A stretch of 64,000 nucleotides of DNA from Thermoleophilia bacterium (GTDB lineage: Bacteria; Actinomycetota; Thermoleophilia; Gaiellales; F1-60-MAGs149), in NCBI GenBank assembly GCA_037133755.1, contig JBAXNN010000008.1, positions 30,245 through 94,244 of the forward strand. The letters run 5' to 3'. Position 1 is the first letter of the stretch. Every line of letters starts with the position of its first letter. Position numbers and translations under genes: made by a program. The notes beneath the pieces were generated by a model. The model saw only the letters and a list, made by a program, of their open reading frames with translations, had not been told where the DNA came from and did not search any database. Of this stretch, positions 4,252-48,024 are shown piece by piece.

Positions 4252-6209
4252 TAGTCGCCCGCCACCAGTTCGCGGTCGGCGTAGGCGGTCATGGTCTGCT
4301 CGCCCTTGGCGAGCTTCTCGACCTTGATCGCGCAGGCCTTGAACTCGGCGGTGCCACTCTTCTCGTCGACGGCGTCGATCGTCAGCTGGTTCACGTCGAC
4401 CTGGTCGGGGAAGTGGAACGTCATGAAGCCAAGACCAGGACGCAGCCGGACGTCGGTGCGGACCGGCGACTCGACGGTGCCACGGCGCGAGGAGACGCGC
4501 ACGATCTCGCCGTCTTCGAGGTTCATGCGCTCCATGTCCTCGGGGCACAGCTCGAGGAACTCGCCGGCGTGCAGCGGGCTCGTGAACTTCTCGGTCTGGA
4601 CGCCCGTGTTGTACGACTCGAGGCGACGACCCGTGGTGAGACGGATCGGGAACTCGGCGTCGGTCGCCTCGAACGGCGGGCGATCGTGCACCGGCACGAA
4701 CGGCGCGAGCATGCCCTGCACCGGGTCGGCCCAGAGACGCTCGTGCAGACGCGGCGAGCCAGCGTGGCCCTCCTCGGGGCACGGCCATTGGATGCCACCG
4801 AGCTCCTCGAGCCGCGCGTACGACATGCCGGTGTGCATCGGCGAGAGCGAGCGCAGCTCGTTCCAGATGTCCTCGCTGGTCGGGTAGTTCCAATCGAAGC
4901 CCAGGCGCTTGGCCAGCTCGGTGAGGATCCACTGGTCGTCCATGGCCTCGCCCGGCGGGTCGAGCGCCTTGCGCACGCGCTGGACGCGACGCTCGGAGTT
5001 CGTGACGGTGCCGTCGGACTCGCACCACGAGGCAGAGCCCGGCAGGATCACGTCGGCGAGCTCGGCCGTCTTCGTCGCGAAGATGTCCTGCACGACAAGG
5101 AAGTTGAGGCCGCCCAGCAGGGTGCGGATGCGGTTCGAATCGGCGTCGGACTGGGCCGGGTTCTCGCCGATGATGTAGCAGTACTTCAGCTCCCCGGTCT
5201 CCATGCCGTGGAACATCTGCGTGAGGTGCCAGCCGTAGCGATCACGGATCGGCACGCCGTAGGCCTGCGAGAACTTCTCGCGTGCCTCGTGGTTGTTCTC
5301 GATGTCCTGGAAGCCCGGCAGGCGATTCGGGATCGCGCCCATGTCGCCGCCGCCCTGCACGTTGTTCTGGCCGCGCAGCGGGTTGAGGCCCGAGCCGTAG
5401 CGCCCGACGTGGCCGCAGAGCAGGGCCAGGGAGATCAGGCTGAGGACGTTGTCGACGCCCGTGTGGTGCTCGGTGATACCGAGCGTCCACGAGATCATCG
5501 CGCGGTCGGCCTTGGCGTAGGCGTGGGCGACCTCGCGGATCGCCTCGGCCGGTACGCCGGTCAGCTCCTCGGCACGCTCGAGCGTGTACTCGGCGACGTG
5601 CTTTCGATAGTTCTCGAAGTTCTCCGTGGAGTGCTCGATGAAGGCCCTGTTGGCGAGACCCGCTTGGATGATCTCGTTGGCCATGGCGTTGGCGAGGGCG
5701 ATGTCCGAGCCGACGTTATTGCCGAGCCAGATGTCGGCCCACTGGGCGGTCTCAGAACGGCGGGGATCGACGACGAAGAGCCGCGCACCGTTGTGAATGC
5801 CCTTGAGGACGTGATGGAAGAAAATCGGATGTGCGTTGCGGGCGTTCGAGCCCCACAGCAGGATGACGTCGGTGTCGTGATACTCCTCATACGAAGAGGT
5901 TCCGCCACCCGCTCCAAAGACAGTCGCCAGACCGACGACGCTAGGAGCGTGTCAAGTTCTGTTACATGAGTCGACGTTGTTCGACCCCATCACCTGACGG
6001 GTGAACTTGCCGGCGAGGTAGTTGACCTCGTTGGAGGCCTTCGAGCACGAGAACATGCCGTAGCTCTTCGATGTGTCGAGGTCGCGCGCAGGCGCGAGGC
6101 CGGCGGCGGCGTAATCGAGCGCCTCCTCCCAGCTGGCGGGTCGGAACTCGCCGTTCTCCTTGATCCATGGGTGCGTCAGGCGCCCCTTGGGCAGTTTCGT
6201 CGTCGTCAT
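4251..6209 (-). CDS. fdhA: Formate dehydrogenase catalytic (molybdopterin) subunit, selenocysteine-containing; lacks its own FS0 domain
   Basis: ORFs 5952..6527 and 4251..5684 join in frame across TGA 5954..5952: ..NNVDSCNRT-U-HAPSVVGLATVFGAGGGTSSYEEY... ATG 6209 (MTTTKLPKGRLTHPWIKENGEFRPASWEEALDY) has GGAGG 9 nt upstream. Typical MopB and C-terminal barrel blocks are present: NPLRGQNNVQGGGDMG, IGENPAQSDAD, LTTGRRLESYNTG. Confidence 0.88.
5911..5954 (-). ncRNA. Sec UGA codon plus bacterial SECIS-like stem-loop inside the fdhA mRNA
   Basis: The mRNA reads UGA CAC GCU CCU AGC GUCGUC GGUCU GGCGAC UGUCUUU GGAGC. The upper 6-bp stem (5939..5923) closes a GGUCU loop that starts 12 nt after UGA. 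The lower stem pairs GCUCC with GGAGC. Register and loop resemble the E. coli fdhF SECIS core. Confidence 0.7.
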
Positions 6210-6294
6210 CGCAGCAGTCCTCCAGCGGATATGCGTGAACACCCCAATGATGACGGGGCACGAGCGCCGGCGAAACATGGCATTTCCACTCGTG

Positions 6295-6313
6295 TGATAG
6301 GCAACGGCTATCA
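6295..6313. promoter_or_regulatory. LysR-type T-N11-A palindromic box in the fdhA/lysR divergent region
   Basis: TGATAG-gcaacgg-CTATCA is a perfect 6-bp inverted repeat containing T-N11-A. It lies 8 nt upstream of the LysR ATG and about 86 nt upstream of the fdhA ATG. Confidence 0.5.
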
Positions 6314-6320
6314 TGGCGTC

Positions 6321-7202
6321 ATGCAGTTGCGGCAGTTGGAATACGTCATAGCGCTCGCTCGCGAACGGCACTTCGGCCGCGCTGCTGCTGCATGTCATGT
6401 CTCGCAGCCGTCCCTGAGCGGCGGCATTCGGGCCCTCGAGGCGGAATTGGGTGTGCCTATCGTGGTGCGCGGCCGCACCTACGGCGGCCTGACACCCGAG
6501 GGCGAGCGTGTGGTTGCCTGGGCGCACCGCCTGCTGGCCGACGCCGACGGCCTGCGCGAAGACCTCGCCGCCATGCGCGGCGCGCTTACCGGTCGCCTGC
6601 GCCTCGGCGCGATCCCGACCGCGCTGCCGATCGCCAGCGCGCTATCGGCGACCGTCGCCGCGCTCCACCCCGGCCTGTCGATCACCGTGCTCTCGCTCGC
6701 CAGCCGCGAGATCGAACGCCAACTGCTCGAGTTCGAGATCGATGCCGGCATCACGTACCTCGACAACGAGCCGCTGCACGGTGTGCGCGGTGTCCCGGTC
6801 GCGCAGGAGCGCTACGTCCTCTACGCCCACCAGGGCAGTCCCGAGGCGAGCCGGCCATCGCTGACCTGGCGCGAGGCCGCAGAGCTGCCGCTCGTGCTGC
6901 TCACGCAGACGATGCAGAACCGCCGCATCATCGACGCGGCCTTCACGACCGCTGGCTCCTCCCCCGCCCCACGCATCGAGTCGGACGACATCGTGCCGCT
7001 CTGGGAGCACGTGGCCGATGGCCGCTGGTACACGATCGGGCCGAGCTCGTGGCTCGACGGCGGCGCGCTGCCCGACGAGATCGTCGCCGTGCCACTGACC
7101 GACCCAACGGTGGAGCAACGCATCGGCGTCGTCGTCCCCGACCGCGACCCATTGCCGACGATCACGCGCGCGCTGCTCGACGCAGCCCGCGGCGACGACT
7201 AG
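6321..7202 (+). CDS. LysR-family transcriptional regulator
   Basis: ORF 6171..7202 trimmed to ATG 6321: MQLRQLEYVIALARERHFGRAAAACHVSQPSLSGGIRALEAELG (LysR wHTH) followed by a substrate-binding domain. Divergent from the fdh operon. Confidence 0.9.
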   Translation: MQLRQLEYVIALARERHFGRAAAACHVSQPSLSGGIRALEAELGVPIVVRGRTYGGLTPEGERVVAWAHRLLADADGLREDLAAMRGALTGRLRLGAIPTALPIASALSATVAALHPGLSITVLSLASREIERQLLEFEIDAGITYLDNEPLHGVRGVPVAQERYVLYAHQGSPEASRPSLTWREAAELPLVLLTQTMQNRRIIDAAFTTAGSSPAPRIESDDIVPLWEHVADGRWYTIGPSSWLDGGALPDEIVAVPLTDPTVEQRIGVVVPDRDPLPTITRALLDAARGDD

Positions 7203-7224
7203 CTCTCCACGCGCCCACCCTTCG

Positions 7225-9114
7225 TCAGGGCGTGAGTTCGATGCGGCGGCCGATCGCCGTCAAGAGCTCGGGTGGCACGCCGAAGAACTCGGGACGCCCC
7301 TGGGAGAAGCGATGCATGGCGGCGAACAGATACAGCGGGACCGAGCGCAGTCCCCTGCCCTTGACGGCCACGGAGTCGCGCCCGATGAGGTAATCGGCCA
7401 CCTGTGGATCGAATGGCTCGCCCAGCGCGAGTCGCCCCAGTGCCGCAGGCACGTCAGGTTGCTCGGTGAACCCGAAGCGAAGCGCAATGCGCTGCACGCC
7501 GTGCTGCAGCACAACAACCTCGGCGCGCTCCGCCTCCGGAACCACGGGAACCTCGGTTGTGCTGATCGAGACGATCAGCGTGCGCTCGTAGATGCCTCCG
7601 GTGCGATCGGCCAGTTTCATCAGCGTCCCAGGCGCCACCTCCGGCTCACGCACGAGGAAGACACCCGTACCACGCAACCGGCCGCGGGCCGATGGCGGCA
7701 ACGTGGCCAGGAATCCGTCCAGCGGCACGGCGTGAGCCGCCGCCTCGGCCAGCAAGCGATCACGCCCCGTCGACCACGAGCGGACGACGAAGAAGATCAC
7801 CACGGCGATGGAGACGGTGAACCACGCGCCGTGCACGATCTTGATCACGTTCGACGAGAAGAACAGGATGTCGACGACACCGAGCGGTACGTAGACGAGC
7901 GCCACGACCAGCGGCGACCAACGCCAGACCGTGCGAGCCACGATCGCCGCGAGGATCGTCGTGCAGATCAGGGTGCCAGTGACCGTCAGGCCGTACGCCA
8001 CGACGAGACGGGATGAGGACTGGAAGATCAGCACCGTCGCCGCCACGCCGATGAACATGATCAGCGTGATCACGGGGATGTTGATCTGCCCGCGGATCGT
8101 CTTCGAGGTGTGGACGATCGGCAGGCGCGGCAGAAATCCCATCTGCATCGCCTGCTGCGTCAGCGAGTACATGCCCGTGATGACCGCCTGCGACGCGATC
8201 ACCGTCGCCAGCGTGGCGAGCACGACCATCGGCAGCATCAGTCCGTCGGGAACCAGCGCGTAGAAGGGGTTGTTGATCTTACGCGGATCGTCCAGAACCA
8301 ATGCGCCCTGTCCGAGATAACACAGCACCAGTGCTGGGAAGACGATCACCGACCACGAGATCGTGATGGGTGGACGCCCGAAGTGCCCCATGTCGGCGTA
8401 CAACGCCTCGACACCGGTGATCGCGAGGGTGACCGCACCAAGCGCGAGGAACGTCATTGTCGGCTCGCGCAGCGCGAGGTCGATCGCATAGGTGGGACTG
8501 ATCGCCCGCAGCACCGAGGGGTTCTGCACGATCTGCACGATGCCGAGTGCCGAGATCACGGTGAACCAGAGAAGCATGATCGGCCCGAACACGCGCCCGA
8601 TGCTCCCTGTGCCCCAGCGCTGCATCATGAAGAGGAGCGTCAGGATGACCAACGCGATCTCGGTCTCGTACTCCTGCAATCCGCTATTGATGAGCGATGC
8701 TCCCTCGATCGCCGACAGCACCGACACGCTCGGCGTGAGTACCGCGTCGGCGGCGAAGAGCGCGATCGCGAGCATGCTGAGGAAGATGACCAGCGCCCGG
8801 CGTCGCCCCCGGACGAGAGGCTCAACGAGGGCGCCCAGCGCCAAGGTGCCGCCCTCGCCGTTGTTCGATGCCCGCATCACAACGATCACGTACTTGATGG
8901 TGACCACGATGATGAGCGCCCAGACGAACAGTGAGAGCGCACCAAGCACGGATGGCTCGTCGACGGTGAGGCCGATATCGGGGCCGAACGCGGCCTGGAA
9001 GGCGTAGAGCGGGCTGGTGCCGATGTCGCCGTAAATGACACCGAGCGCGGCGAGGACAAGCAGCGCGACCGCGCCGCGTCGCGGCGTGCCCTGGTGACGA
9101 TTCGCATGCGGCAT
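7225..9114 (-). CDS. kup: KUP/HAK/KT-family potassium uptake transporter
   Basis: 629 aa and polytopic. N-terminal signature GVIYGDIGTSPLYAF; GEGGTLAL; a C-terminal cytosolic domain. Confidence 0.9.
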   Translation of the reverse strand: MPHANRHQGTPRRGAVALLVLAALGVIYGDIGTSPLYAFQAAFGPDIGLTVDEPSVLGALSLFVWALIIVVTIKYVIVVMRASNNGEGGTLALGALVEPLVRGRRRALVIFLSMLAIALFAADAVLTPSVSVLSAIEGASLINSGLQEYETEIALVILTLLFMMQRWGTGSIGRVFGPIMLLWFTVISALGIVQIVQNPSVLRAISPTYAIDLALREPTMTFLALGAVTLAITGVEALYADMGHFGRPPITISWSVIVFPALVLCYLGQGALVLDDPRKINNPFYALVPDGLMLPMVVLATLATVIASQAVITGMYSLTQQAMQMGFLPRLPIVHTSKTIRGQINIPVITLIMFIGVAATVLIFQSSSRLVVAYGLTVTGTLICTTILAAIVARTVWRWSPLVVALVYVPLGVVDILFFSSNVIKIVHGAWFTVSIAVVIFFVVRSWSTGRDRLLAEAAAHAVPLDGFLATLPPSARGRLRGTGVFLVREPEVAPGTLMKLADRTGGIYERTLIVSISTTEVPVVPEAERAEVVVLQHGVQRIALRFGFTEQPDVPAALGRLALGEPFDPQVADYLIGRDSVAVKGRGLRSVPLYLFAAMHRFSQGRPEFFGVPPELLTAIGRRIELTP

Positions 9115-9160
9115 CGCAGCCGTATCCTAGAACAAAGATTTCGTATTCAGCGGCACATCG

Positions 9161-11071
9161 TCAGATCTCGACGCGCGCGCCCATCGTGACCGTGTGATCC
9201 GGGGGCACGTGGAAGAAGTCCGTCGAGACCTGTGCGTGGCGATGGAGCAGCGCGAAGACGCGGCGCGGGAAGCCGATGAAGCCGCGGGACGTGACAGCAA
9301 CGGTGTCGCGGCCAACGAAGTACGACGTCGTCTCCGGGTCGATGTGGGGTCCGATCGCGCTCGCCTCGAGCGCGACGGGGACGTTCGGCGACTCGGCAAA
9401 GCCGAAGCGCAGGAACACGCGCCACAGGCCCGGGCTGATCTCCGTCGCCTCAGAGCGATTGGCATCGGTCGCGTACGGCGTGTCAAGCGTCTGCACGGTC
9501 AGCAGCACAGTCAGCTCGTGGATGCGGCCGAAGTTGCGGATCGTGGCGATCAGCGGGCGTGGCACATGGGTGGACGAGGCGACGAGGAACACGCCGGTGC
9601 CCTCCGTGCGCTTGTACTTGCCGGCCGCGACCTTCTCGGTGAAGTCATCGGCCGGCACGGCCTCGCGCGAGAGCGCGCGCATCATCGCCGTGCGTCCCGT
9701 CGACCACGACGAGATGATGATGAACAGGATTGTCGCGACGACCAGCGAGAACCACGCGCCGTGCGGGATCTTCGACATGTTGGCAGTGAAGAACGCGACG
9801 TCGACGATGCCGAGCGGTCCGAAGATCAGCACGATGCGCCACTTCGGCCAGTGCCAGAGGTGGAAGGCGACGATCACGGCGAGGACCGTGGTGCACACCA
9901 ACGTACCGGTGACGGCGAGACCATAGGCCGCCGCGAGGTGCTCGGAAGACTTGAAGATCAGGATCGTCGCAACCACCGCGAGGTACTGGAACAGCGTGAT
10001 GACGGGCATGAAGATCTGGCCGCGCACCGTCGCCGACGTCTGCAGCACCTTCATGCGCGGCAGCAGGCCGAGCTGCATCGCCTGGCGCGTCACGGAATAG
10101 GCGCCCGAGATGACGGCTTGGGACGCGATCACCGTGGCGAGCGTGGCGAGGATCACGACCGGAATCTCGATCCCACCCGGCACGAGGTGGTAGAAGGGAT
10201 TGTCGATCAGCTGCGGATTCTCGAGCAGCAGCGCGCCCTGACCGAGGTAGCAGAGCGTGAGACTCGGGAAGACGATCAGCAGCCACGACAGCGTGATCGG
10301 CGGGCGGCCGAAATGCCCCATGTCCGCGTACAGCGCCTCGGCACCGGTGATCGCGAGCGTGACCGCACTGAGCGCGCCGAACGACAGCAGCGGATGGGCG
10401 ACGATGAACTCGAAGGCGTAGATCGGCAGGATCGCGCGCACCACGGTCGGGTTCTCGCGGATGCCGTTGATGCCAATACCCGCGATGACGAGAAACCAGA
10501 CGAGCATGATCGGGCCGAACAGGCGGCCGACCTTCTCCGTGCCGAAGCGCTGGCCGAGGAAGAGCGTCGTCAGAATCACGAGCGCGATCACGATCGCATA
10601 CCGCTCGATCTCGGGAAACTTGAGGCCTGCGCCTTCGACAGCTGACAGCACCGAGATGCTCGGTGTCAGCACCGCGTCGCTCATGAAGAGCGAGACCGCG
10701 AGGATGCCGACGATGATCACCATCGTGCGCGTCTTGTTCTGCACGAAGCGCAGCGCGAGCGACTGAAGCGCCAGATCGCCGCCCTCCCCCTTGTTGTTGG
10801 CGCGCGTCACGATGATCACGTACTTGATCGTCACGACGATGATCAGTGCCCAGATGAACATCGAGAGGAGGCCGAGGATGTCCTGCTCGTTCGGCTTCAT
10901 GCCGAACGTCGAGCTGAAGGCCACCTGCATCGCGTAGAGCGGGCTCGTGCCGATGTCGCCGTAGATCACCCCGAGCGCGCCGAGCGCGAGGAGTGGCAGT
11001 GGCCCGTGCGGGACATGGCTGCCTCCGGAGGTGGCGTGGTTCGAATCGGACAATGCAGTGCGGCGTCGCAT
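9161..11071 (-). CDS. kup: KUP/HAK/KT-family potassium uptake transporter (tandem paralogue)
   Basis: ORF 9161..11110. The start is uncertain (ATG 11071 MRRRTALSD.. or 11110). Motifs GVIYGDIGTSPLYAM and GEGGDLAL. Colinear with the downstream kup. Confidence 0.88.
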   Translation of the reverse strand: MRRRTALSDSNHATSGGSHVPHGPLPLLALGALGVIYGDIGTSPLYAMQVAFSSTFGMKPNEQDILGLLSMFIWALIIVVTIKYVIIVTRANNKGEGGDLALQSLALRFVQNKTRTMVIIVGILAVSLFMSDAVLTPSISVLSAVEGAGLKFPEIERYAIVIALVILTTLFLGQRFGTEKVGRLFGPIMLVWFLVIAGIGINGIRENPTVVRAILPIYAFEFIVAHPLLSFGALSAVTLAITGAEALYADMGHFGRPPITLSWLLIVFPSLTLCYLGQGALLLENPQLIDNPFYHLVPGGIEIPVVILATLATVIASQAVISGAYSVTRQAMQLGLLPRMKVLQTSATVRGQIFMPVITLFQYLAVVATILIFKSSEHLAAAYGLAVTGTLVCTTVLAVIVAFHLWHWPKWRIVLIFGPLGIVDVAFFTANMSKIPHGAWFSLVVATILFIIISSWSTGRTAMMRALSREAVPADDFTEKVAAGKYKRTEGTGVFLVASSTHVPRPLIATIRNFGRIHELTVLLTVQTLDTPYATDANRSEATEISPGLWRVFLRFGFAESPNVPVALEASAIGPHIDPETTSYFVGRDTVAVTSRGFIGFPRRVFALLHRHAQVSTDFFHVPPDHTVTMGARVEI

Positions 11072-41514: not shown

Positions 41515-42939
41515 GTGATGACCAGCCTGCTGCCCGGACTCCCCCACGCCTCGCTCGAGATCGGTGGTGTGCGCCTCGACGGCGACGAGCTGGCCGGTGC
41601 GGTCGGTGCGGTCGCGGTTTCGCTCGCCGATCACACCCGCGTGGCACTGTGGTGCACCTCGGAGCTCGTAACGGGACTCGGCATTGCCGGCGCACTGATC
41701 GCTGGCGTGACGGTCGTGCCGATCAACCCCGCCTCGGGCGATCGCGAGCTCGCGCACGAGACCGGCGACAGTCGGCCAGAGGCCGTTCTGGCTTCGGCCA
41801 CCGCAGAGTTGCCGCCGACACTCGCCGCGCTGCCCCGCATCGTGATCGACCCCGCGGCCCGCGCACCGCTCCCGTCGATCGACACCCCGCCCGATGTGGC
41901 CGCGCTGATCGTCTACACGTCGGGCACCACCGGCGCCCCCAAGGGCGTCGTGATGTCGCGCCGCGCCGTCGCCGCGAACCTCGACGCCCTCGCCGACGCC
42001 TGGGCGTGGACGAGCGCTGATGTCGTGGCGCAGGCGCTGCCGCTCTTTCACGTGCACGGTCTCGTGCTCGGCACCGTCGGCCCGCTCCGGCTCGGCGGCG
42101 GCGTACGGCACGTCGGCCGCTTCTCGCCGGAGGCGATCGCCGCAGCGTTCGCAGACGACGCCACGATGCTCTTCGCCGTGCCAACCATGCACGGGCGTCT
42201 GCTCGCCGCCGCTGAGGCGGACCCGGCTGTCGCCAACGCCCTGCGCAGCGCACGCCTGATTGTCTCTGGCTCCGCCGCGCTGCCGGCCCGCGTCCACGAG
42301 GCGTACACCGCGGCCACGGGCCAGCAGATCGTCGAGCGCTACGGCATGAGCGAGGCGCTGATGATCGCGAGCGCCCGCCACGACGGCCCACGCATCCCCG
42401 GCGCGGTCGGCACGGCCCTGCCCGGCGTCGAGATCCGCATTACCGATGACGCCGGTGTCGTGATGCCCGTCGGCGACACCGACACGATCGGCAACGTCGA
42501 GATCAAGAGCGCGTCGCTGTTCGATGAGTACCTCGGGCGCCCTGACGCGACGGCCGAGGCCTTCAACGACGGCTGGTTCCGTACGGGCGACGTCGGCTCG
42601 CTCGACAACGATGGCGTGCTCCGTCTGGTCGGGCGCAGCTCGACCGACCTGATCAAGACCGGCGGGTATCGCGTCGGCGCTGGCGAGATCGAGGCCGCGA
42701 TGCTCGAGCACCCCGACGTCGTCGAGGTGGCCGTGCTCGGCATCCCCGACGACGACCTCGGCGAGCGCATCGCCGCCTGGGTGGTGATCACCCCCGGCAG
42801 CGACCTCACCGACGATGTGCTCGTGCAGCACGTCGCCGACCTCCTCGCACCGCACAAGCGCCCGCGCGTGATCACCCGCGTCGACGAGCTACCGCGCAAC
42901 GCGCTCGGCAAGGTGCAGAAGAAGCGGCTGCTCGGATGA
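41515..42939 (+). CDS. AMP-dependent acyl-CoA synthetase/ligase (MatB-like size)
   Basis: IVYTSGTTGAPKGVVMS (AMP-binding motif I), FRTGDVG, GRSSTDLIKTGGYRV, and a terminal LPRNALGKVQKK. Confidence 0.88.
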   Translation: MMTSLLPGLPHASLEIGGVRLDGDELAGAVGAVAVSLADHTRVALWCTSELVTGLGIAGALIAGVTVVPINPASGDRELAHETGDSRPEAVLASATAELPPTLAALPRIVIDPAARAPLPSIDTPPDVAALIVYTSGTTGAPKGVVMSRRAVAANLDALADAWAWTSADVVAQALPLFHVHGLVLGTVGPLRLGGGVRHVGRFSPEAIAAAFADDATMLFAVPTMHGRLLAAAEADPAVANALRSARLIVSGSAALPARVHEAYTAATGQQIVERYGMSEALMIASARHDGPRIPGAVGTALPGVEIRITDDAGVVMPVGDTDTIGNVEIKSASLFDEYLGRPDATAEAFNDGWFRTGDVGSLDNDGVLRLVGRSSTDLIKTGGYRVGAGEIEAAMLEHPDVVEVAVLGIPDDDLGERIAAWVVITPGSDLTDDVLVQHVADLLAPHKRPRVITRVDELPRNALGKVQKKRLLG

Positions 42940-43691
42940 GCACCGGCGCACACGCCGGTCGCGACCACATCACGTGGGTCGGGCACGGCACGGTCGTCAT
43001 CGCCATGGGCGGCACGCGGGTGATCGTCGACCCTGTGCTGCGCCCCCGTGTGCTGCATCTCAAGCGCTTCCACCCGGTGCCCAAGCATGCGCTGCGCTCG
43101 CTCGACGCGGCACTGATCACCCACCAGCACCACGACCATCTCGACCCGCCGTCGCTCGAGAGTCTCGGCAAGGAGCTGCCGATCATCGTCCCGGCGGGCG
43201 CCGCCGGGACGTTGCGCCGCAAGAAGTTCACCCACGTCGTCGAGATCGACGAGGGCGAGCGCATCCAGATCGGCGCGCTGCGTGCCACCGCAACGCCGGC
43301 CGACCACGACGACAAGCGCGACCACCCGCTCGGTCCGACCGCCACGCCGATCGGGTACCTGTTCGAGGGTTCCAAGCGCATCTACGTGGCCGGCGACACC
43401 GACCTGTTCGACGAGATGGAGCTGATTGGTCCAGTCGACTACGCGCTGCTGCCGATCTTCGGCTGGGGTCCGGGCCTCGGCCCCGGCCACATGGATCCGG
43501 AGCGCGCCGCCGAAGCGGCGCGACGTCTGCAGGCGAAGGTCGCGATCCCGATCCACTGGGGCACGCTCTGGCCGATCGGCCGCGGCGAGCCGCCGCACGC
43601 GCCGGCCGACGAGTTCATCGAGCACTGCGCGCGCCTTGCACCCGACAGCCAAGCGAGATTGCTCGAGCCTGGCTCGACCGTCGAGTTCTAA
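42936..43691 (+). CDS. MBL-fold metallo-hydrolase
   Basis: ATGA overlap with the upstream gene. ITHQHHDHLD zinc motif. Confidence 0.8.
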   Translation: MSTGAHAGRDHITWVGHGTVVIAMGGTRVIVDPVLRPRVLHLKRFHPVPKHALRSLDAALITHQHHDHLDPPSLESLGKELPIIVPAGAAGTLRRKKFTHVVEIDEGERIQIGALRATATPADHDDKRDHPLGPTATPIGYLFEGSKRIYVAGDTDLFDEMELIGPVDYALLPIFGWGPGLGPGHMDPERAAEAARRLQAKVAIPIHWGTLWPIGRGEPPHAPADEFIEHCARLAPDSQARLLEPGSTVEF

Positions 43692-43704: not shown

Positions 43705-46116
43705 TTAGACGAGTCGTTGTAACTCGATTTCGGTCAGACCCGGATTGGCATCCCGTAGCGCCTGCACCTGTTCGGGATGGCAGGTGAAGTACAAGACCTG
43801 ATGCCGCGTGGCGAGGTCGGCGATGACCGCCGCTGCGCCCGCACGGCGCTCGGGGTCGAGGTGCGTGAGGACGTCGTCCATCAGCACCGGTAGCTCGGGG
43901 CCGCCGTCATCGTGCATCTCGTCGACGAGGCCTGCGCGCAGACAGAGGTAGACGAGACCGACGGTGCCCTCCGACAGCTCGGCGAACGGCGTGCGCGCAC
44001 CGTCGCGGCCGACGATCTCGGAGCGCGCGCCGGCCTTCTCGCCGTCGGGCATACGGACGGTCACCCAGGAGCCGTTCGTCGCGGTCGCGATCTGCGTGGC
44101 AGCGCGCTCGAACACGCCCGGCTGATGCTCCTCGACGAACCGATCACGAGCCTGCTCGACGATCGTGTGAGCCAGTTGCAACGTGAGCCACTCGTCGGCG
44201 ACCGCGCGGAGATCGGCCTCTGCGTCGGCGGCGCTCTGGGCGAGCATGGCAAGGTCGGTGGAGTCCTCCGCGTTCTCGATCAGCGCGCGCGTGCCGCCGA
44301 GCGCCGCGATGGCCTCGGTGTGCTCCCCCCGCGCCGCGTCGACCTGACCGTCGAGCACATCGCGCTGTGCCTCCGCCTGCTCCAGATCGAGCGCCTCCGC
44401 GGCAGCGACGAGTGCTGCGTCACCACGCGAGAGATCGTCTACGTGAGCTTGGGCGAGCTCGCGACGGTGCTGCCAGGCCTGCACGTCGGTGCGGTGCGTG
44501 GCGGCAATCTCGCGCTGTGCGTCGAAGTCGTGCAGCGCCCGATCGACGGCAGTGCGCAGCTGCTCCAGTTCGGTCGGCGCACCCTCGCCAAGCGCCGCGA
44601 TAGCGCGCGCAACGATGGCGTCGGCAGTGGCTGTGTCCGCCTGGGCCAGTGCAGCCGAGCGAGCGGCGGCATCGTCGGCCGTGCGGATCACGCCGAACGT
44701 CGCCAACACGTCGTCGAGTTGATCCACGCGCAGCTCGGCGGCGAGCCCGCTGGCCACAAGAGACGCACGCCATGCGGCTCGCGCCTGCTCCGCCACGGCT
44801 TCGGCCTGTGCGGCGGCGGCCTGGTGTTGGTCCGCGGCGGTGGCGTGAAGCTGCGGGCCTGCGGGGCGGGAGCCGGCGCCCAATCCGCCGAGGATCGCGG
44901 CGCCGACGGCAACGCCGAGAATCCCGCCGATGATCGTGGCGGTGATACCCACGAACCACCCGATGCCAATCGCGATGAGGCTGACGGCGATCAGTGCCGC
45001 GCCAAGGCCGCGGCGTGGCGTCGGGGCCGCGACCTCGACCGGGGCCGGCAGCTGCGTCGCCGCGCTGCGGGCGACATCGCCCAGGCGCGTCGCCTCGCGT
45101 TCGGCTTCGCGCACGGCCTCAGCGGCGGCACGCAATCCGGACTCGTCGGCGATCGACGGCACGGGTGCGGTCCCCGCAAGCCCCACGCGCTCGCGGGCGC
45201 GCACTGCGCGCTCACGTTCGCCCGCCGCATCGGCCTCGTGCTGCGTGGCGCGACGCCGGGCGTCGATCGCCACGGGCAGGTCGGTCAGGATCGCGCGGTA
45301 CTCGCTGACGACCTCGACGGACGGCTCCTCCACACCAGTCGCCTCGGGCCGCTGGGCGTCGACGGCAGTGGCCTCGACCAGCGCCGCGCGCAGCTGCACC
45401 AGGCGGTCGAGGCGCTGGAGGTCTTGCGTGGCGGCAACCAACTGCTCGTTGGCACGAGCCACCCGCGCCTCGGCCTCGGCGAGTGCGTCGGCAGAGCGAT
45501 CGGCCGCACCGGCGTCCTTCTCGGCTTCGCGCAGTGCACGCCGCGCCGCAGTCACGGCCTTGAGCGCATGCGCGTACGGCTGGTTCTCGCCCTGCTTCTT
45601 GTACAGCGCGTCGGCGCGCTTCTGCAGCGCGCTCAAGACCGGCTCGGCGCCAGCGCCCCCACCCAGCACCGCGGAGGCGAGCACGCCGGCGCGCACCGAG
45701 GGGTCGTCGAGCAGTCCCATCGAGGCGAGGTCCCGCGAATCGAAGGTCTGGACACGGTCGAAGAGGTCAACGCTCGTGATGCCCAGCGCGCGCATGAGTG
45801 CGGCATCGCCGACCGGCTCGCCGTGCTCGTCGGTGATCACGACGCTCGAGCCGTGCGTCCGTTCGACGCGGAAGCGGCGCCCATCGTCGGCCACGATGTC
45901 CACGCGCCCAGAGCGCTGGCCGCCACCCTTGGGCTCGCGCCGCGGGCCCTCGCCGCGCAGCGCCGGAAACCCGAACAGCACGCCGCGGATCAGCTGCATG
46001 GTCGAGCTCTTGCCCGACTCGTTGGGGCCATGGATGACAGTCAGGCCCGGCTCTGGCTCGACGACACGGCCGCCGATTGCGCCATAGGCGATCGCCTCGA
46101 TGCGCGCGATTCTCAT
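43705..46116 (-). CDS. Rad50/SbcC-like AAA ATPase (YhaN type) with a central hydrophobic hairpin
   Basis: Walker A GPNESGKSS; long Ala/Glu/Arg-rich coiled-coil segments; C-terminal Walker B LPVLMDDVLTHLD. Residues 371-415 are LGAALIAVSLIAIGIGWFVGITATIIGGILGVAVGAAILGGLGAG. No CxxC hook. Confidence 0.8.
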   Translation of the reverse strand: MRIARIEAIAYGAIGGRVVEPEPGLTVIHGPNESGKSSTMQLIRGVLFGFPALRGEGPRREPKGGGQRSGRVDIVADDGRRFRVERTHGSSVVITDEHGEPVGDAALMRALGITSVDLFDRVQTFDSRDLASMGLLDDPSVRAGVLASAVLGGGAGAEPVLSALQKRADALYKKQGENQPYAHALKAVTAARRALREAEKDAGAADRSADALAEAEARVARANEQLVAATQDLQRLDRLVQLRAALVEATAVDAQRPEATGVEEPSVEVVSEYRAILTDLPVAIDARRRATQHEADAAGERERAVRARERVGLAGTAPVPSIADESGLRAAAEAVREAEREATRLGDVARSAATQLPAPVEVAAPTPRRGLGAALIAVSLIAIGIGWFVGITATIIGGILGVAVGAAILGGLGAGSRPAGPQLHATAADQHQAAAAQAEAVAEQARAAWRASLVASGLAAELRVDQLDDVLATFGVIRTADDAAARSAALAQADTATADAIVARAIAALGEGAPTELEQLRTAVDRALHDFDAQREIAATHRTDVQAWQHRRELAQAHVDDLSRGDAALVAAAEALDLEQAEAQRDVLDGQVDAARGEHTEAIAALGGTRALIENAEDSTDLAMLAQSAADAEADLRAVADEWLTLQLAHTIVEQARDRFVEEHQPGVFERAATQIATATNGSWVTVRMPDGEKAGARSEIVGRDGARTPFAELSEGTVGLVYLCLRAGLVDEMHDDGGPELPVLMDDVLTHLDPERRAGAAAVIADLATRHQVLYFTCHPEQVQALRDANPGLTEIELQRLV

Positions 46117-47357
46117 GCCGCACCGTCCTGCTCGAGCAGCAGTCCGAGCGCGAGCTCGCGGGCGGTTGCGAGGCGACCCGCGGCATCCTCCTCTGACAGG
46201 CCGGCCAGCGCCGTGTCGGTAAACGATTTGGCGAGCCCGTCGAGCTGGCGCTGCAGCTCGGCGGGATCTGCGGCGAGCGTGTCGAAGGCGCCGAGCACCT
46301 CGGCAGCGAAGGCGTTGGATTGGCGTAGCTCGTCGAGGTCAACGGCGGGACCGGCGGTCGAGACGATGCGTTCCCAGACGAGGTCGTCGCCCTCCTGATC
46401 GTCGAGAGCGCTGCGTAGGCCAGTGAGGTACTCGTCGCGCACGAGCAGTTCGTGCACCGGGCCACGCCCGGTCAGCGTGGCCCGCAGCAGCACGACCCGG
46501 CCATCGGCCTGTACGACGACCGCGGCAGCGGCGTTGCGGAGCGCACGCTCGAGGTCGGCCTCATCGCCCAAGCCCTCGATGGGCACCTCGACGGCCTCGA
46601 AACGCACGCGGTCGAGCTCGACGCGACGATGCGCCACGACGCGGTCGCCTTCGAATTCGACGACGACGGCACCGTGCGGCCCGCGTTCGCCGGGCTTCGG
46701 CGAGCGGCCCTGCAGCGTGCCGGCGTAGATGATCGGCGGCTCGGCGTGCTCCTCGGAGTACGCGTGGATGTGCCCGAGCGCCCAGTAATCCATACGGGCG
46801 GCGACAAGGTCGCCGACGGTGCACGGCGCGTACGTCCCGTGCCCTTCGCGCTCGCCGAGTGAGCAGTGAAGGACGCCGACATGCAGGCCCGGTGCATCGC
46901 CGCGCTCGAACTTGAGCGCCAGATTCTCGGTCACCTCGCGCTTGCCGAACGAGACCCCGTGCACGGTCACCGGCCCGGCCGGCAGGTCGATCGTCTCGCT
47001 GGTCGGCACGTCCTTGCGAAACACGTGCACGCCCTCGAGCCCGGCCAGCGGCGAGCGCCCGCTGAGCGGATCGTGGTTGCCGTGCACGGCGAAGACGCGG
47101 ATACCGCGCTCCTGCAGGCGCTCGATGCCGCGGCGCACGCGCGAACGCCCACGCGGCGTGCCGTCAGCGCGATCAAAGAGGTCGCCACTGATCACCAGAA
47201 ACTCGGCCTCCTCGTCGAGGCAGCAGTCGATCAGCGCGTCCCACGCATCGAGTGACGCGTCACGCATCACGTCAGCGAAGCCCTCCCGCAACGACCCGAC
47301 GCCCGCAAACGGGCTGTCGAGGTGCAGATCGGCGGCGTGGATGAAGCGTCGTGGCAT
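46113..47357 (-). CDS. SbcD/Mre11-like metallophosphoesterase DNA-repair exonuclease (YhaO type)
   Basis: MPRRFIHAADLHLDSPF, ISGDLFD, GNHD, GHIH. ATGA overlap with the ATPase gene. Confidence 0.85.
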   Translation of the reverse strand: MPRRFIHAADLHLDSPFAGVGSLREGFADVMRDASLDAWDALIDCCLDEEAEFLVISGDLFDRADGTPRGRSRVRRGIERLQERGIRVFAVHGNHDPLSGRSPLAGLEGVHVFRKDVPTSETIDLPAGPVTVHGVSFGKREVTENLALKFERGDAPGLHVGVLHCSLGEREGHGTYAPCTVGDLVAARMDYWALGHIHAYSEEHAEPPIIYAGTLQGRSPKPGERGPHGAVVVEFEGDRVVAHRRVELDRVRFEAVEVPIEGLGDEADLERALRNAAAAVVVQADGRVVLLRATLTGRGPVHELLVRDEYLTGLRSALDDQEGDDLVWERIVSTAGPAVDLDELRQSNAFAAEVLGAFDTLAADPAELQRQLDGLAKSFTDTALAGLSEEDAAGRLATARELALGLLLEQDGAA

Positions 47358-47445: not shown

Positions 47446-48024
47446 CTAGACCGTGCCGCCCTCGAAGAGCTTCTTGGCGGCCATACCGGCGGCGATCATC
47501 ATGATGCCGTCGAACAAGAGCTGGATGCCGACGAGCAGGCCGATCGCCCACGCGGCCGACGACGGCAGGTTGGCGATCACGAGTGCCGCGATGACTACGG
47601 CGAGGATGCCGTTGACGATCGTCCAGCCGGCGTTCGGGACCTTCCCGCGGGCCTGGATGCCGGCGAGGATGCGAAAGATGCCGATCACGAGGAAAAAGAT
47701 CGCGAGCACCCACGTCAGGGTGATCGTGCCTTCAGCCGGGTTGACGATCAGCCACACGCCAGCGATCACGTAGATGATCGCGACGATGAAGCTCCAGATG
47801 CGATGGCTGGTCGTGCCGCGCGAGATCGCCTCGGCGACGTAGGCCACGGCGCCGACCAGCAGCAGGATGCCGACAAGCAGCGTGATCGTCACCGACGCCA
47901 GCGGCGGGATGATGATCGCGATTGCGCCGAGAATGGCGCTGATGATGCCCGCGGTGAGCAGGAGCTTCCAGCTCTTCGCGAGGGCGGTCTTCAGTTCGGG
48001 GGGCATTCCGGGCACGGCAGACAT
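47446..48024 (-). CDS. HdeD-family (DUF308) membrane protein
   Basis: Only the last 192 codons of the 870-aa ORF 47446..50058. ATG 48024 has AGGAGG upstream. Six helices with the repeated GIxxIILGxxxL pattern. Confidence 0.75.
   Translation of the reverse strand: MSAVPGMPPELKTALAKSWKLLLTAGIISAILGAIAIIIPPLASVTITLLVGILLLVGAVAYVAEAISRGTTSHRIWSFIVAIIYVIAGVWLIVNPAEGTITLTWVLAIFFLVIGIFRILAGIQARGKVPNAGWTIVNGILAVVIAALVIANLPSSAAWAIGLLVGIQLLFDGIMMIAAGMAAKKLFEGGTV

Follow-up and report, generated by a model that had tools for sequence, protein, structure and literature searches.

A predicted two-helix membrane hairpin at the arm tip of a YhaN/SbcE-family Rad50-like ATPase from a Thermoleophilia bacterium

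The SbcE/SbcF pair and its Thermoleophilia counterpart

Bacillus subtilis YhaN and YhaO were named SbcE and SbcF by Krishnamurthy et al. in 2009 (PMC2811018). SbcE is without a CxxC motif. Its 'unique central domain' is shared by all homologues, is hydrophobic in its first half, contains a conserved proline and was completely insoluble in E. coli (PMC2811018). Mutants in sbcE are sensitive to double-strand breaks, show a mild transformation defect and behave synergistically with recN or sbcC; a fusion of SbcE to yellow fluorescent protein (SbcE-YFP) is concentrated at the poles in competent cells, and yeast two-hybrid data are cited for a physical complex of SbcE with its nuclease (PMC2811018). 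The transmembrane reading of the central domain was not made in the 2009 paper (PMC2811018), and SbcEF was later mentioned merely in passing, as 'poorly characterized' (PMC6452273). Here, we describe a counterpart of this pair in a stretch of 64,000 nucleotides from Thermoleophilia bacterium (assembly GCA_037133755.1, contig JBAXNN010000008.1, positions 30,245 to 94,244 of the forward strand), the whole of which is called the window below. Its 803-residue Rad50-like ATPase carries at mid-length, where Rad50 has its zinc hook, a hydrophobic stretch predicted to form a two-helix membrane hairpin. The open reading frame of the ATPase, that of the nuclease and the parts of the ATPase are laid out as follows, with the source of each assignment in brackets.

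46113 to 47357, minus strand: YhaO/SbcF-like Mre11/SbcD-type metallophosphoesterase nuclease, 414 residues (Pfam Metallophos, 2.6e-12)
43705 to 46116, minus strand: YhaN/SbcE-family Rad50-like ATP-binding cassette (ABC) ATPase, 803 residues plus stop (AAA_27, AlphaFold2, Foldseek)
45580 to 46116, minus strand: N-terminal half of the head, residues 1-179, with Walker A GPNESGKS at residues 30-37 (46006-46029) (Pfam, alignment, AlphaFold2)
45055 to 45579, minus strand: ascending helical arm, residues 180-354, with helices 180-253, 267-311 and 322-354 (AlphaFold2)
45013 to 45054, minus strand: Pro-rich flexible linker 1, residues 355-368, ending at the basic pair R368 R369 (predicted local distance difference test, pLDDT, below 50 at 356-366)
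44950 to 45012, minus strand: predicted transmembrane helix 1, residues 369-389; small residues are conserved at 372, 379 and 386 (hydropathy, AlphaFold2, alignment)
44944 to 44949, minus strand: tight turn G390-I391, followed by T392/T394, predicted extracytoplasmic (helix break in AlphaFold2)
44890 to 44943, minus strand: predicted transmembrane helix 2, residues 392-409; G398 and G405 are conserved (hydropathy, AlphaFold2, alignment)
44848 to 44889, minus strand: flexible linker 2, residues 410-423, with R417 inside (pLDDT below 50 at 411-424)
44080 to 44847, minus strand: descending helical arm, residues 424-679 (AlphaFold2)
43708 to 44079, minus strand: C-terminal half of the head, residues 680-803 (alignment, AlphaFold2, motifs)
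43966 to 43977, minus strand: signature LSEG, residues 714-717 (motif)
43873 to 43893, minus strand: Walker B LPVLMDD, residues 742-748 (motif)
43777 to 43785, minus strand: H-loop TCH, residues 778-780 (motif)

Judged by its sequence, the ATPase is an ordinary member of the YhaN/SbcE (AAA_27) family paired with a YhaO/SbcF nuclease. Residues 1-199 match Pfam AAA_27 (PF13514, YhaN-type) at 84.7 bits against a cut-off of 22 (8.9e-24), an identical protein from a Thermoleophilia metagenome-assembled genome is on record as 'AAA family ATPase [Thermoleophilia bacterium]', and homologues carry the label 'uncharacterized protein YhaN'. The protein has the split ABC head expected of this group, with Walker A near the N-terminus, the signature, Walker B and H-loop near the C-terminus, and long helical arms between them; both Walker motifs had been recognised in an earlier reading of the sequence alone (hereafter the sequence-only reading) and are found at residues 30 and 742. 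Rad50/SbcC models of NCBIfam gave no match to the ATPase, with the ASRP and RecF models alone appearing, far under their cut-offs. Likewise, the Pfam SMC_N match lies under its cut-off, and Pfam finds no SMC_hinge of the kind that marks SMC proteins proper.

Sequence comparison of the ATPase with the PDB yielded marginal matches to Rad50 heads (best E = 0.0016), and a fold search was therefore used instead. The AlphaFold2 model (a monomer built from 41 homologues, mean pLDDT 83, predicted template modelling score 0.44) has a split head, arms made of long helices (180-354 and 424-679) and, between the arms, two short mid-point helices at 369-389 and 392-409 (pLDDT ~65-73), which are bracketed by low-confidence linkers (pLDDT <50) at 356-366 and 411-424. 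Its best Foldseek match in the PDB is Rad50 from the C. thermophilum MRN complex (7zr1, 2.6e-15), followed by Smc5/6, MukB, Lamassu LmuB and JetC.

The partner gene is coupled to the ATPase gene in one operon, its stop codon overlapping the ATPase start as ATGA at 46113-46116. Matches of the nuclease to the Mre11/SbcD models of NCBIfam are sub-threshold and far beneath the curated cut-offs, and its best sequence match in the PDB is Mre11 (1ii7, 1.5e-9). The catalytic motifs are kept, as DLH(10), GD(58), GNHD(93) and GHIH(195). All of the top 50 Foldseek matches of its AlphaFold2 model (pLDDT 90.6) in the PDB are Mre11/SbcD, with alignments that span most of each chain and a template modelling (TM) score, normalised to the target, of 0.74 for Methanocaldococcus jannaschii Mre11 and up to 0.76 among these 50. 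Helices at residues 341-413 close the model, and we read them as the probable equivalent of the Rad50-binding region. With Rad50 as best match of the ATPase and Mre11/SbcD filling the top 50 of its partner, the proposal of a Rad50/SbcC-like ATPase joined to an Mre11/SbcD-like nuclease through an ATGA overlap is correct at the level of fold.

Comparison with described systems places the pair closest to SbcE/SbcF (COG4717). Shared with the B. subtilis proteins are the N-terminal AAA_27 domain, the split ABC head, long arms without CxxC, a mid-length hydrophobic block with a turn, which stands where other families have a CxxC hook or an SMC hinge, and an SbcD-like nuclease gene that lies immediately upstream in the same orientation. 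The window ATPase differs in that head identity to YhaN/SbcE is ~25% and the arms have no recognisable identity, in its length (803 residues versus ~960-990), in a hairpin that is Gly/Ala-rich whereas that of Bacillaceae YhaN is Phe/Ile/Met-rich, and in its locus, which has a DUF308 gene upstream and, unlike the YhaO/YhaN/YhaM locus, no yhaM downstream. With Rad50-Mre11 and SbcC-SbcD, the pair shares the ABC head, an antiparallel helical arm, an Mre11-fold partner in the operon and its best structural matches, but it lacks both a CxxC hook and an equivalog match above threshold, and its arm is shorter and ends in a hydrophobic hairpin. The ATPases of several defence systems (Lamassu LmuB, Wadjet JetC, PARIS AriA and MADS mad3) likewise have an SMC/Rad50-type head and a coiled coil. 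However, the partner in the window is an Mre11-type nuclease rather than LmuA, JetD or AriB, and the context is housekeeping and syntenic, not a defence island. An anti-phage assignment to Lamassu, Wadjet, PARIS or MADS was tried and rejected: the PADLOC matches (mad3, LmuB, AriA) were weak (E >= 5.8e-10) and confined to the Walker A region or head, and the neighbouring genes (DUF308, MBL-fold hydrolase, AMP-binding and isochorismatase) include no cognate effectors. The window locus is thus ordinary in itself, one further YhaN/SbcE homologue in a very large, under-studied family. A role in double-strand-break repair and transformation may be proposed for it by analogy with the genetics of B. 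subtilis SbcE.

The hydrophobic mid-point and its conservation

Residues 371-415 of the ATPase, encoded at 44872-45006, read LGAALIAVSLIAIGIGWFVGITATIIGGILGVAVGAAILGGLGAG, with letters and coordinates exactly as first quoted. The mean Kyte-Doolittle hydropathy over 19 residues peaks here at 2.40 and exceeds 1.6 at all centres from residue 378 to 407, and the mid-point is the sole stretch of the protein to do so, as no window elsewhere rises above 1.32. The residues D, E, K, R, H, Q and N, which together make up 33% of the ATPase, are missing from all 47 positions from 370 to 416. When the protein was shuffled 20,000 times, the longest run of this kind had a mean length of 14.8 residues and a maximum of 37, and the analytic expectation of a 47-residue run is ~5e-6. 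The run is flanked by PTPRRG before and SRPAGP after, in keeping with the Arg and Pro borders that had been pointed out. No CxxC zinc hook, the mark of Rad50/SbcC, occurs anywhere in the 803 residues. The sequence-only reading, which had also concluded that a hook was absent, miscounted the cysteines: there are two, C725 (LVYLCLR) and C779 (FTCH), rather than one near the C-terminus, and both are invariant residues of the head.

The block is a family-wide hallmark of YhaN/SbcE and not peculiar to this gene. All 38 close homologues (43-92% identity) have it in the same place, and most of the distant ones (~800-1070 residues, 20-35% identity) also carry it. A genome scan, with one genome per species, gave 80 loci with 78 usable ATPases, spanning Actinomycetota, Chloroflexota, Acidobacteriota, Bacillota, Myxococcota, Planctomycetota, other bacterial phyla and archaea; the mid-point block was present in ~55 of the 78 proteins, and an apex CxxC in none of them, nor in any of the homologues examined. 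A profile search of 1.84 billion cluster representatives (50% identity) returned 17,005 proteins at E <= 1e-30. Of the 142 top-scoring new representatives, 127 contain a hydrophobic block that is 38 residues or longer (median extent 51), with its centre at 0.476 +/- 0.014 of the protein length, and a hydrophobic peak can still be seen in the remaining 15. Apart from these representatives, the block is found in ~90 divergent homologues of many bacterial phyla and of archaea, always at ~0.48 of protein length. Median extent of the block is ~51-53 residues across the homologue sets. Position and character are kept in close and very distant homologues alike, and the variability that would have spoken against the membrane reading is not seen. 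The composition of the block follows that of the genome, being rich in A, G, V and L at 68-74% guanine plus cytosine (GC) and in F, I, L, M and Y at 36-42%. That hydrophobicity is maintained while composition tracks GC points to selection for a membrane segment rather than for a specific sequence.

Three archaeal loci (L040, L059 and L013), from Methanomicrobiales, Methanomethylophilus and Thermoplasmata, contain the same nuclease-ATPase pair, and the hairpin is present in L040 and L059, in which the ATPase is complete. The architecture is hence not confined to bacteria.

The connection to SbcE is provided by a locus of Fervidibacillus halotolerans (L031, positions 6001-9955), in which yhaO, yhaN and yhaM follow one another as in B. 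subtilis, with a prsA-like gene beyond. YhaM matches its equivalog model at 3.6e-170, and YhaN aligns to both halves of the window ATPase head (2e-22 and 1e-15) and carries a Phe/Ile/Met-rich hairpin at residues 458-514. The occurrence of the hairpin in a yhaO-yhaN-yhaM locus indicates that the SbcE 'central domain' and the mid-point of the window ATPase are the same feature. The hydrophobic apex itself is accordingly a hallmark already noted in 2009; what is new here is the explicit reading as two helices running in, out and in again, the phyletic breadth, the seven-spaced ('heptad') glycine pattern described below, and a sister clade without the hairpin. A limited literature search found no description of YhaN/SbcE as transmembrane or membrane-anchored. 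Automatic database annotation may already mark transmembrane helices in YhaN proteins.

Predicted topology of the hairpin and the case for a membrane anchor

Far from scoring as non-membrane, the segment is of membrane type by hydropathy and forms two helices in the AlphaFold2 model. The stretch is very probably a two-helix membrane anchor, presumed to insert at the tip of the Rad50-like ATPase. Charge statistics were compiled from 84 non-redundant homologues. Going outward from the block, the nearest charge is R or K in 59 of the 84 on the upstream side and in 62 on the downstream side, and the 12-residue flanks have net charges of +0.57 and +0.98, compared with -0.41 in random windows from the same proteins. 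The central turn has a net charge of about zero and an excess of G, A, T, S and P. Under the positive-inside rule, basic flanks lie on the cytoplasmic side of a membrane, and both ends of the hairpin are thus expected to be cytoplasmic, which is also what two arm strands returning to one head would need. Hydropathy, the model and the charge counts agree on two helices of ~20 hydrophobic residues with a short loop and positive-inside flanks.

Conserved small residues of the hairpin, seen in a 41-sequence alignment, lie at 372, 379, 386, 398 and 405, with Gly in 90% of the sequences at both 386 and 398. These positions are seven apart and mirror-symmetric about the turn at ~392. An alignment-free count over 83 hairpins gave a strong enrichment of Gly-Gly spacing 7 (z = 8.4) and none of spacing 4 (z = 0.4). 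Together, spacing 7 and mirror symmetry point to packing inside one hairpin and not to a GxxxG dimer interface, and we infer that tight packing of the antiparallel helix pair within a hairpin is made possible by the glycines. Membrane tethering and dimerisation by a glycine zipper had been offered as two options by the sequence-only reading. The first is favoured by hydropathy, the AlphaFold2 helices and conservation, with insertion itself a prediction. The GxxxG zipper of the second, which can be seen in the window sequence, is not a feature of the family. Dimer contacts through the outer faces of the hairpins are neither supported nor excluded by these data.

Taken together, the evidence makes it likely that the locus encodes a YhaO/YhaN (SbcF/SbcE-type) complex in which a membrane-inserted, in-out-in hairpin at the arm tip replaces the zinc hook. 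The overlapping genes would yield a complex of an Mre11/SbcD-fold nuclease and a Rad50-like ABC ATPase, and the arm tip would be a hairpin of two ~20-residue hydrophobic helices in the cytoplasmic membrane, its two ends on the inner side, joined to the arm by two flexible Pro-rich linkers. Head and bound nuclease would hang up to ~25-30 nm below the membrane, as estimated from ~175 coiled-coil residues at 0.15 nm each plus the linkers, and the enzyme would be confined to a membrane-proximal shell of the cell. By homology to Rad50-Mre11/SbcCD, ATP-driven engagement of the heads may clamp and cut DNA ends or hairpins. Confinement in two dimensions, possibly with contacts between hairpins through the membrane, could stand in for the hook in gathering protomers or complexes. 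The substrates would be DNA ends near the membrane, and the polar localisation of SbcE in competent cells would fit incoming DNA.

Several points weigh against an anchored complex. Support for the membrane reading comes from hydropathy on the Kyte-Doolittle scale, from charge statistics and from an AlphaFold2 model of the monomer, in which the pLDDT of the hairpin is moderate (~65-73) and the overall predicted template modelling score is 0.44. Both the charge counts from 84 homologues and the spacing counts from 83 hairpins take related sequences as independent. Helix 2 is very Gly-rich and alone may be a marginal segment for membrane insertion, and the turn of the window ATPase holds no charge, so that this hairpin may span the membrane or be re-entrant. 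In growing B. subtilis cells, SbcE-YFP foci were seen 'on the nucleoids' and a membrane pattern was not reported; SbcE and SbcF were insoluble (PMC2811018), and biochemical activity is on record for no family member.

A re-entrant (monotopic) wedge in the inner leaflet, which would tether the complex peripherally without crossing the membrane, is the most probable of the alternatives and is in our judgement unlikely. It would suit the turn of the window ATPase and its close relatives (G-I-T/P-A-T; G-I-T-A-T in the window), which holds no charged residue, the Gly-rich helix 2, which is only 18 residues long in the AlphaFold2 model, and the conserved Gly 386 and 398, which lie near the turn and could permit a tight bend within the membrane. 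Nevertheless, helices of 21 and 18 residues suffice to span the bilayer core, and the median block of ~51-53 residues fits two full spans. Many homologues, moreover, have D, E, R, Q or N in the turn (GLDQQLVW, VADRWFAW, FAITDDDWGS and LSDGEMAL are examples); such residues would be costly in mid-bilayer and suggest that the turn reaches the far side, which favours a full span over a wedge.

We regard as rather improbable that the hook is replaced by a cytoplasmic protein-protein core, such as a four-helix bundle of two hairpins, with no lipid contact. At the same position, other families have dimerisation modules (zinc hooks and SMC hinges), the conserved small residues imply tight helix packing, and the nucleoid foci of SbcE would be readily accommodated. 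Yet all 45-47 residues are apolar or Gly, leaving no side to face water, and the exterior of a four-helix bundle would stay fully hydrophobic. The basic flanks and neutral loop obey the positive-inside rule, and packing within a single hairpin explains the mirrored glycines.

That the pair acts on something other than DNA (lipid, nucleotide or envelope precursors), as a membrane-anchored ATPase and phosphoesterase, appears very doubtful. The low Mre11/SbcD scores of the nuclease in NCBIfam, its weak matches to LpxH-type phosphatases and the DUF308 membrane-protein gene conserved as a neighbour in the lineage would be compatible with such a role. Against it stand the structural matches, exclusively Mre11/SbcD among the top 50 for the nuclease and led by Rad50 for the ATPase, the C-terminal helices read as a Rad50-binding equivalent, and the B. 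subtilis genetics that ties SbcE to double-strand-break repair and transformation.

Finally, a frame error or chance translation, conceivable in a window of 68% GC where high-GC frames readily yield Ala/Gly/Val-rich peptides, can be dismissed with near certainty, as the open reading frame is continuous and conserved end to end, none of the 20,000 shuffles reaches the run length, and low-GC Bacillota and archaea have the block at the same relative position with another composition.

Beyond the window, the family point is that a Rad50-like nuclease family of at least 17,000 clusters at 50% identity (E <= 1e-30), from Bacillota to archaea, has a conserved, predicted two-helix membrane hairpin where Rad50 has a zinc hook. 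If the anchor is real, the apex of a Rad50/SMC coiled coil may serve as tether and dimeriser rather than as topological gate, and the polar localisation of SbcE in competent cells would have a concrete explanation. A bolder and quite tentative extension, which we consider possible and would not bet on, is that YhaN/YhaO is a pan-prokaryotic, membrane-anchored machine of Rad50/Mre11 type, in which the hairpin replaces the hook through two-dimensional confinement and pairing, and the nuclease is limited to DNA that contacts or crosses the membrane. Candidate substrates would then be incoming transforming, conjugative or phage DNA and membrane-attached regions of the chromosome, and the pair would constitute a spatially gated system, distinct from cytosolic SbcCD, by which DNA ends are surveyed or processed. 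No statement of such a membrane-anchored YhaN/YhaO machine was found in the literature searched.

Hairpin-less relatives, long members and neighbouring genes

Other AAA_27 proteins (~1140-1290 residues) have neither the hydrophobic mid-point nor an apex CxxC. Their hosts are Proteobacteria, Planctomycetota, some Actinomycetota and others (P0052-P0111; L021, L030, L047, L061 and L073), and their apex is a soluble segment of modest conservation. In a neighbour-joining tree of head domains they branch off deeply and separately, with 59 sequences in the largest pure clade; the tree is a quick one without bootstrap, and most of its 8 apparent trait changes are artefacts of the hydropathy cut-off. 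This clade resembles the window ATPase in its head domains and in the YhaO-like nuclease gene that precedes the ATPase, and differs at the mid-point. In 78 of the 80 loci, with both clades counted, the gene immediately before that of the ATPase, in the same orientation, is YhaO-like.

Some members are considerably longer than the window ATPase: L017 (1613 residues), L020 (1393), L010 (1302), P0233, P0235 and P0251 (~1500) and P0057 (1320). Several of those with ~1300-1500 residues, P0233, P0235 and P0251 among them, match the profile in at least three separate stretches, and P0057 appears to have a single hydrophobic helix instead of a hairpin. These long members may carry arm expansions or extra domains.

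No third gene is conserved with the pair: the genes that surround it in the window do not reappear in the 80 distant loci. Between 43400 and 48200, promoter-like sites number zero and terminator-like sites two, the latter at chance level. A DUF308/HdeD-like membrane-protein gene (47446-48024, minus strand, 192 residues, Pfam DUF308 4.5e-24) precedes the nuclease gene at a distance of 88 bp. The order DUF308-Metallophos-AAA_27 is kept in relatives at 55% and 43% identity (L081 and L082/L083), where the downstream genes differ; the DUF308 gene is absent from a more distant actinobacterial locus (L084) and from the 80 distant loci. It could reflect lineage synteny or encode a membrane partner. 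On the other side of the pair, an AMP-binding (acyl-CoA synthetase-like) gene (41515-42939, plus strand) overlaps by 4 bp the start of a metallo-β-lactamase (MBL)-fold hydrolase gene (42936-43691, plus strand, Lactamase_B_2 9.6e-38); in L081 and L082, but not in the window, the two are separated by an additional holin-like/phosphodiesterase gene. The MBL-fold gene is convergent with the ATPase gene, and their stop codons are 13 bp apart.

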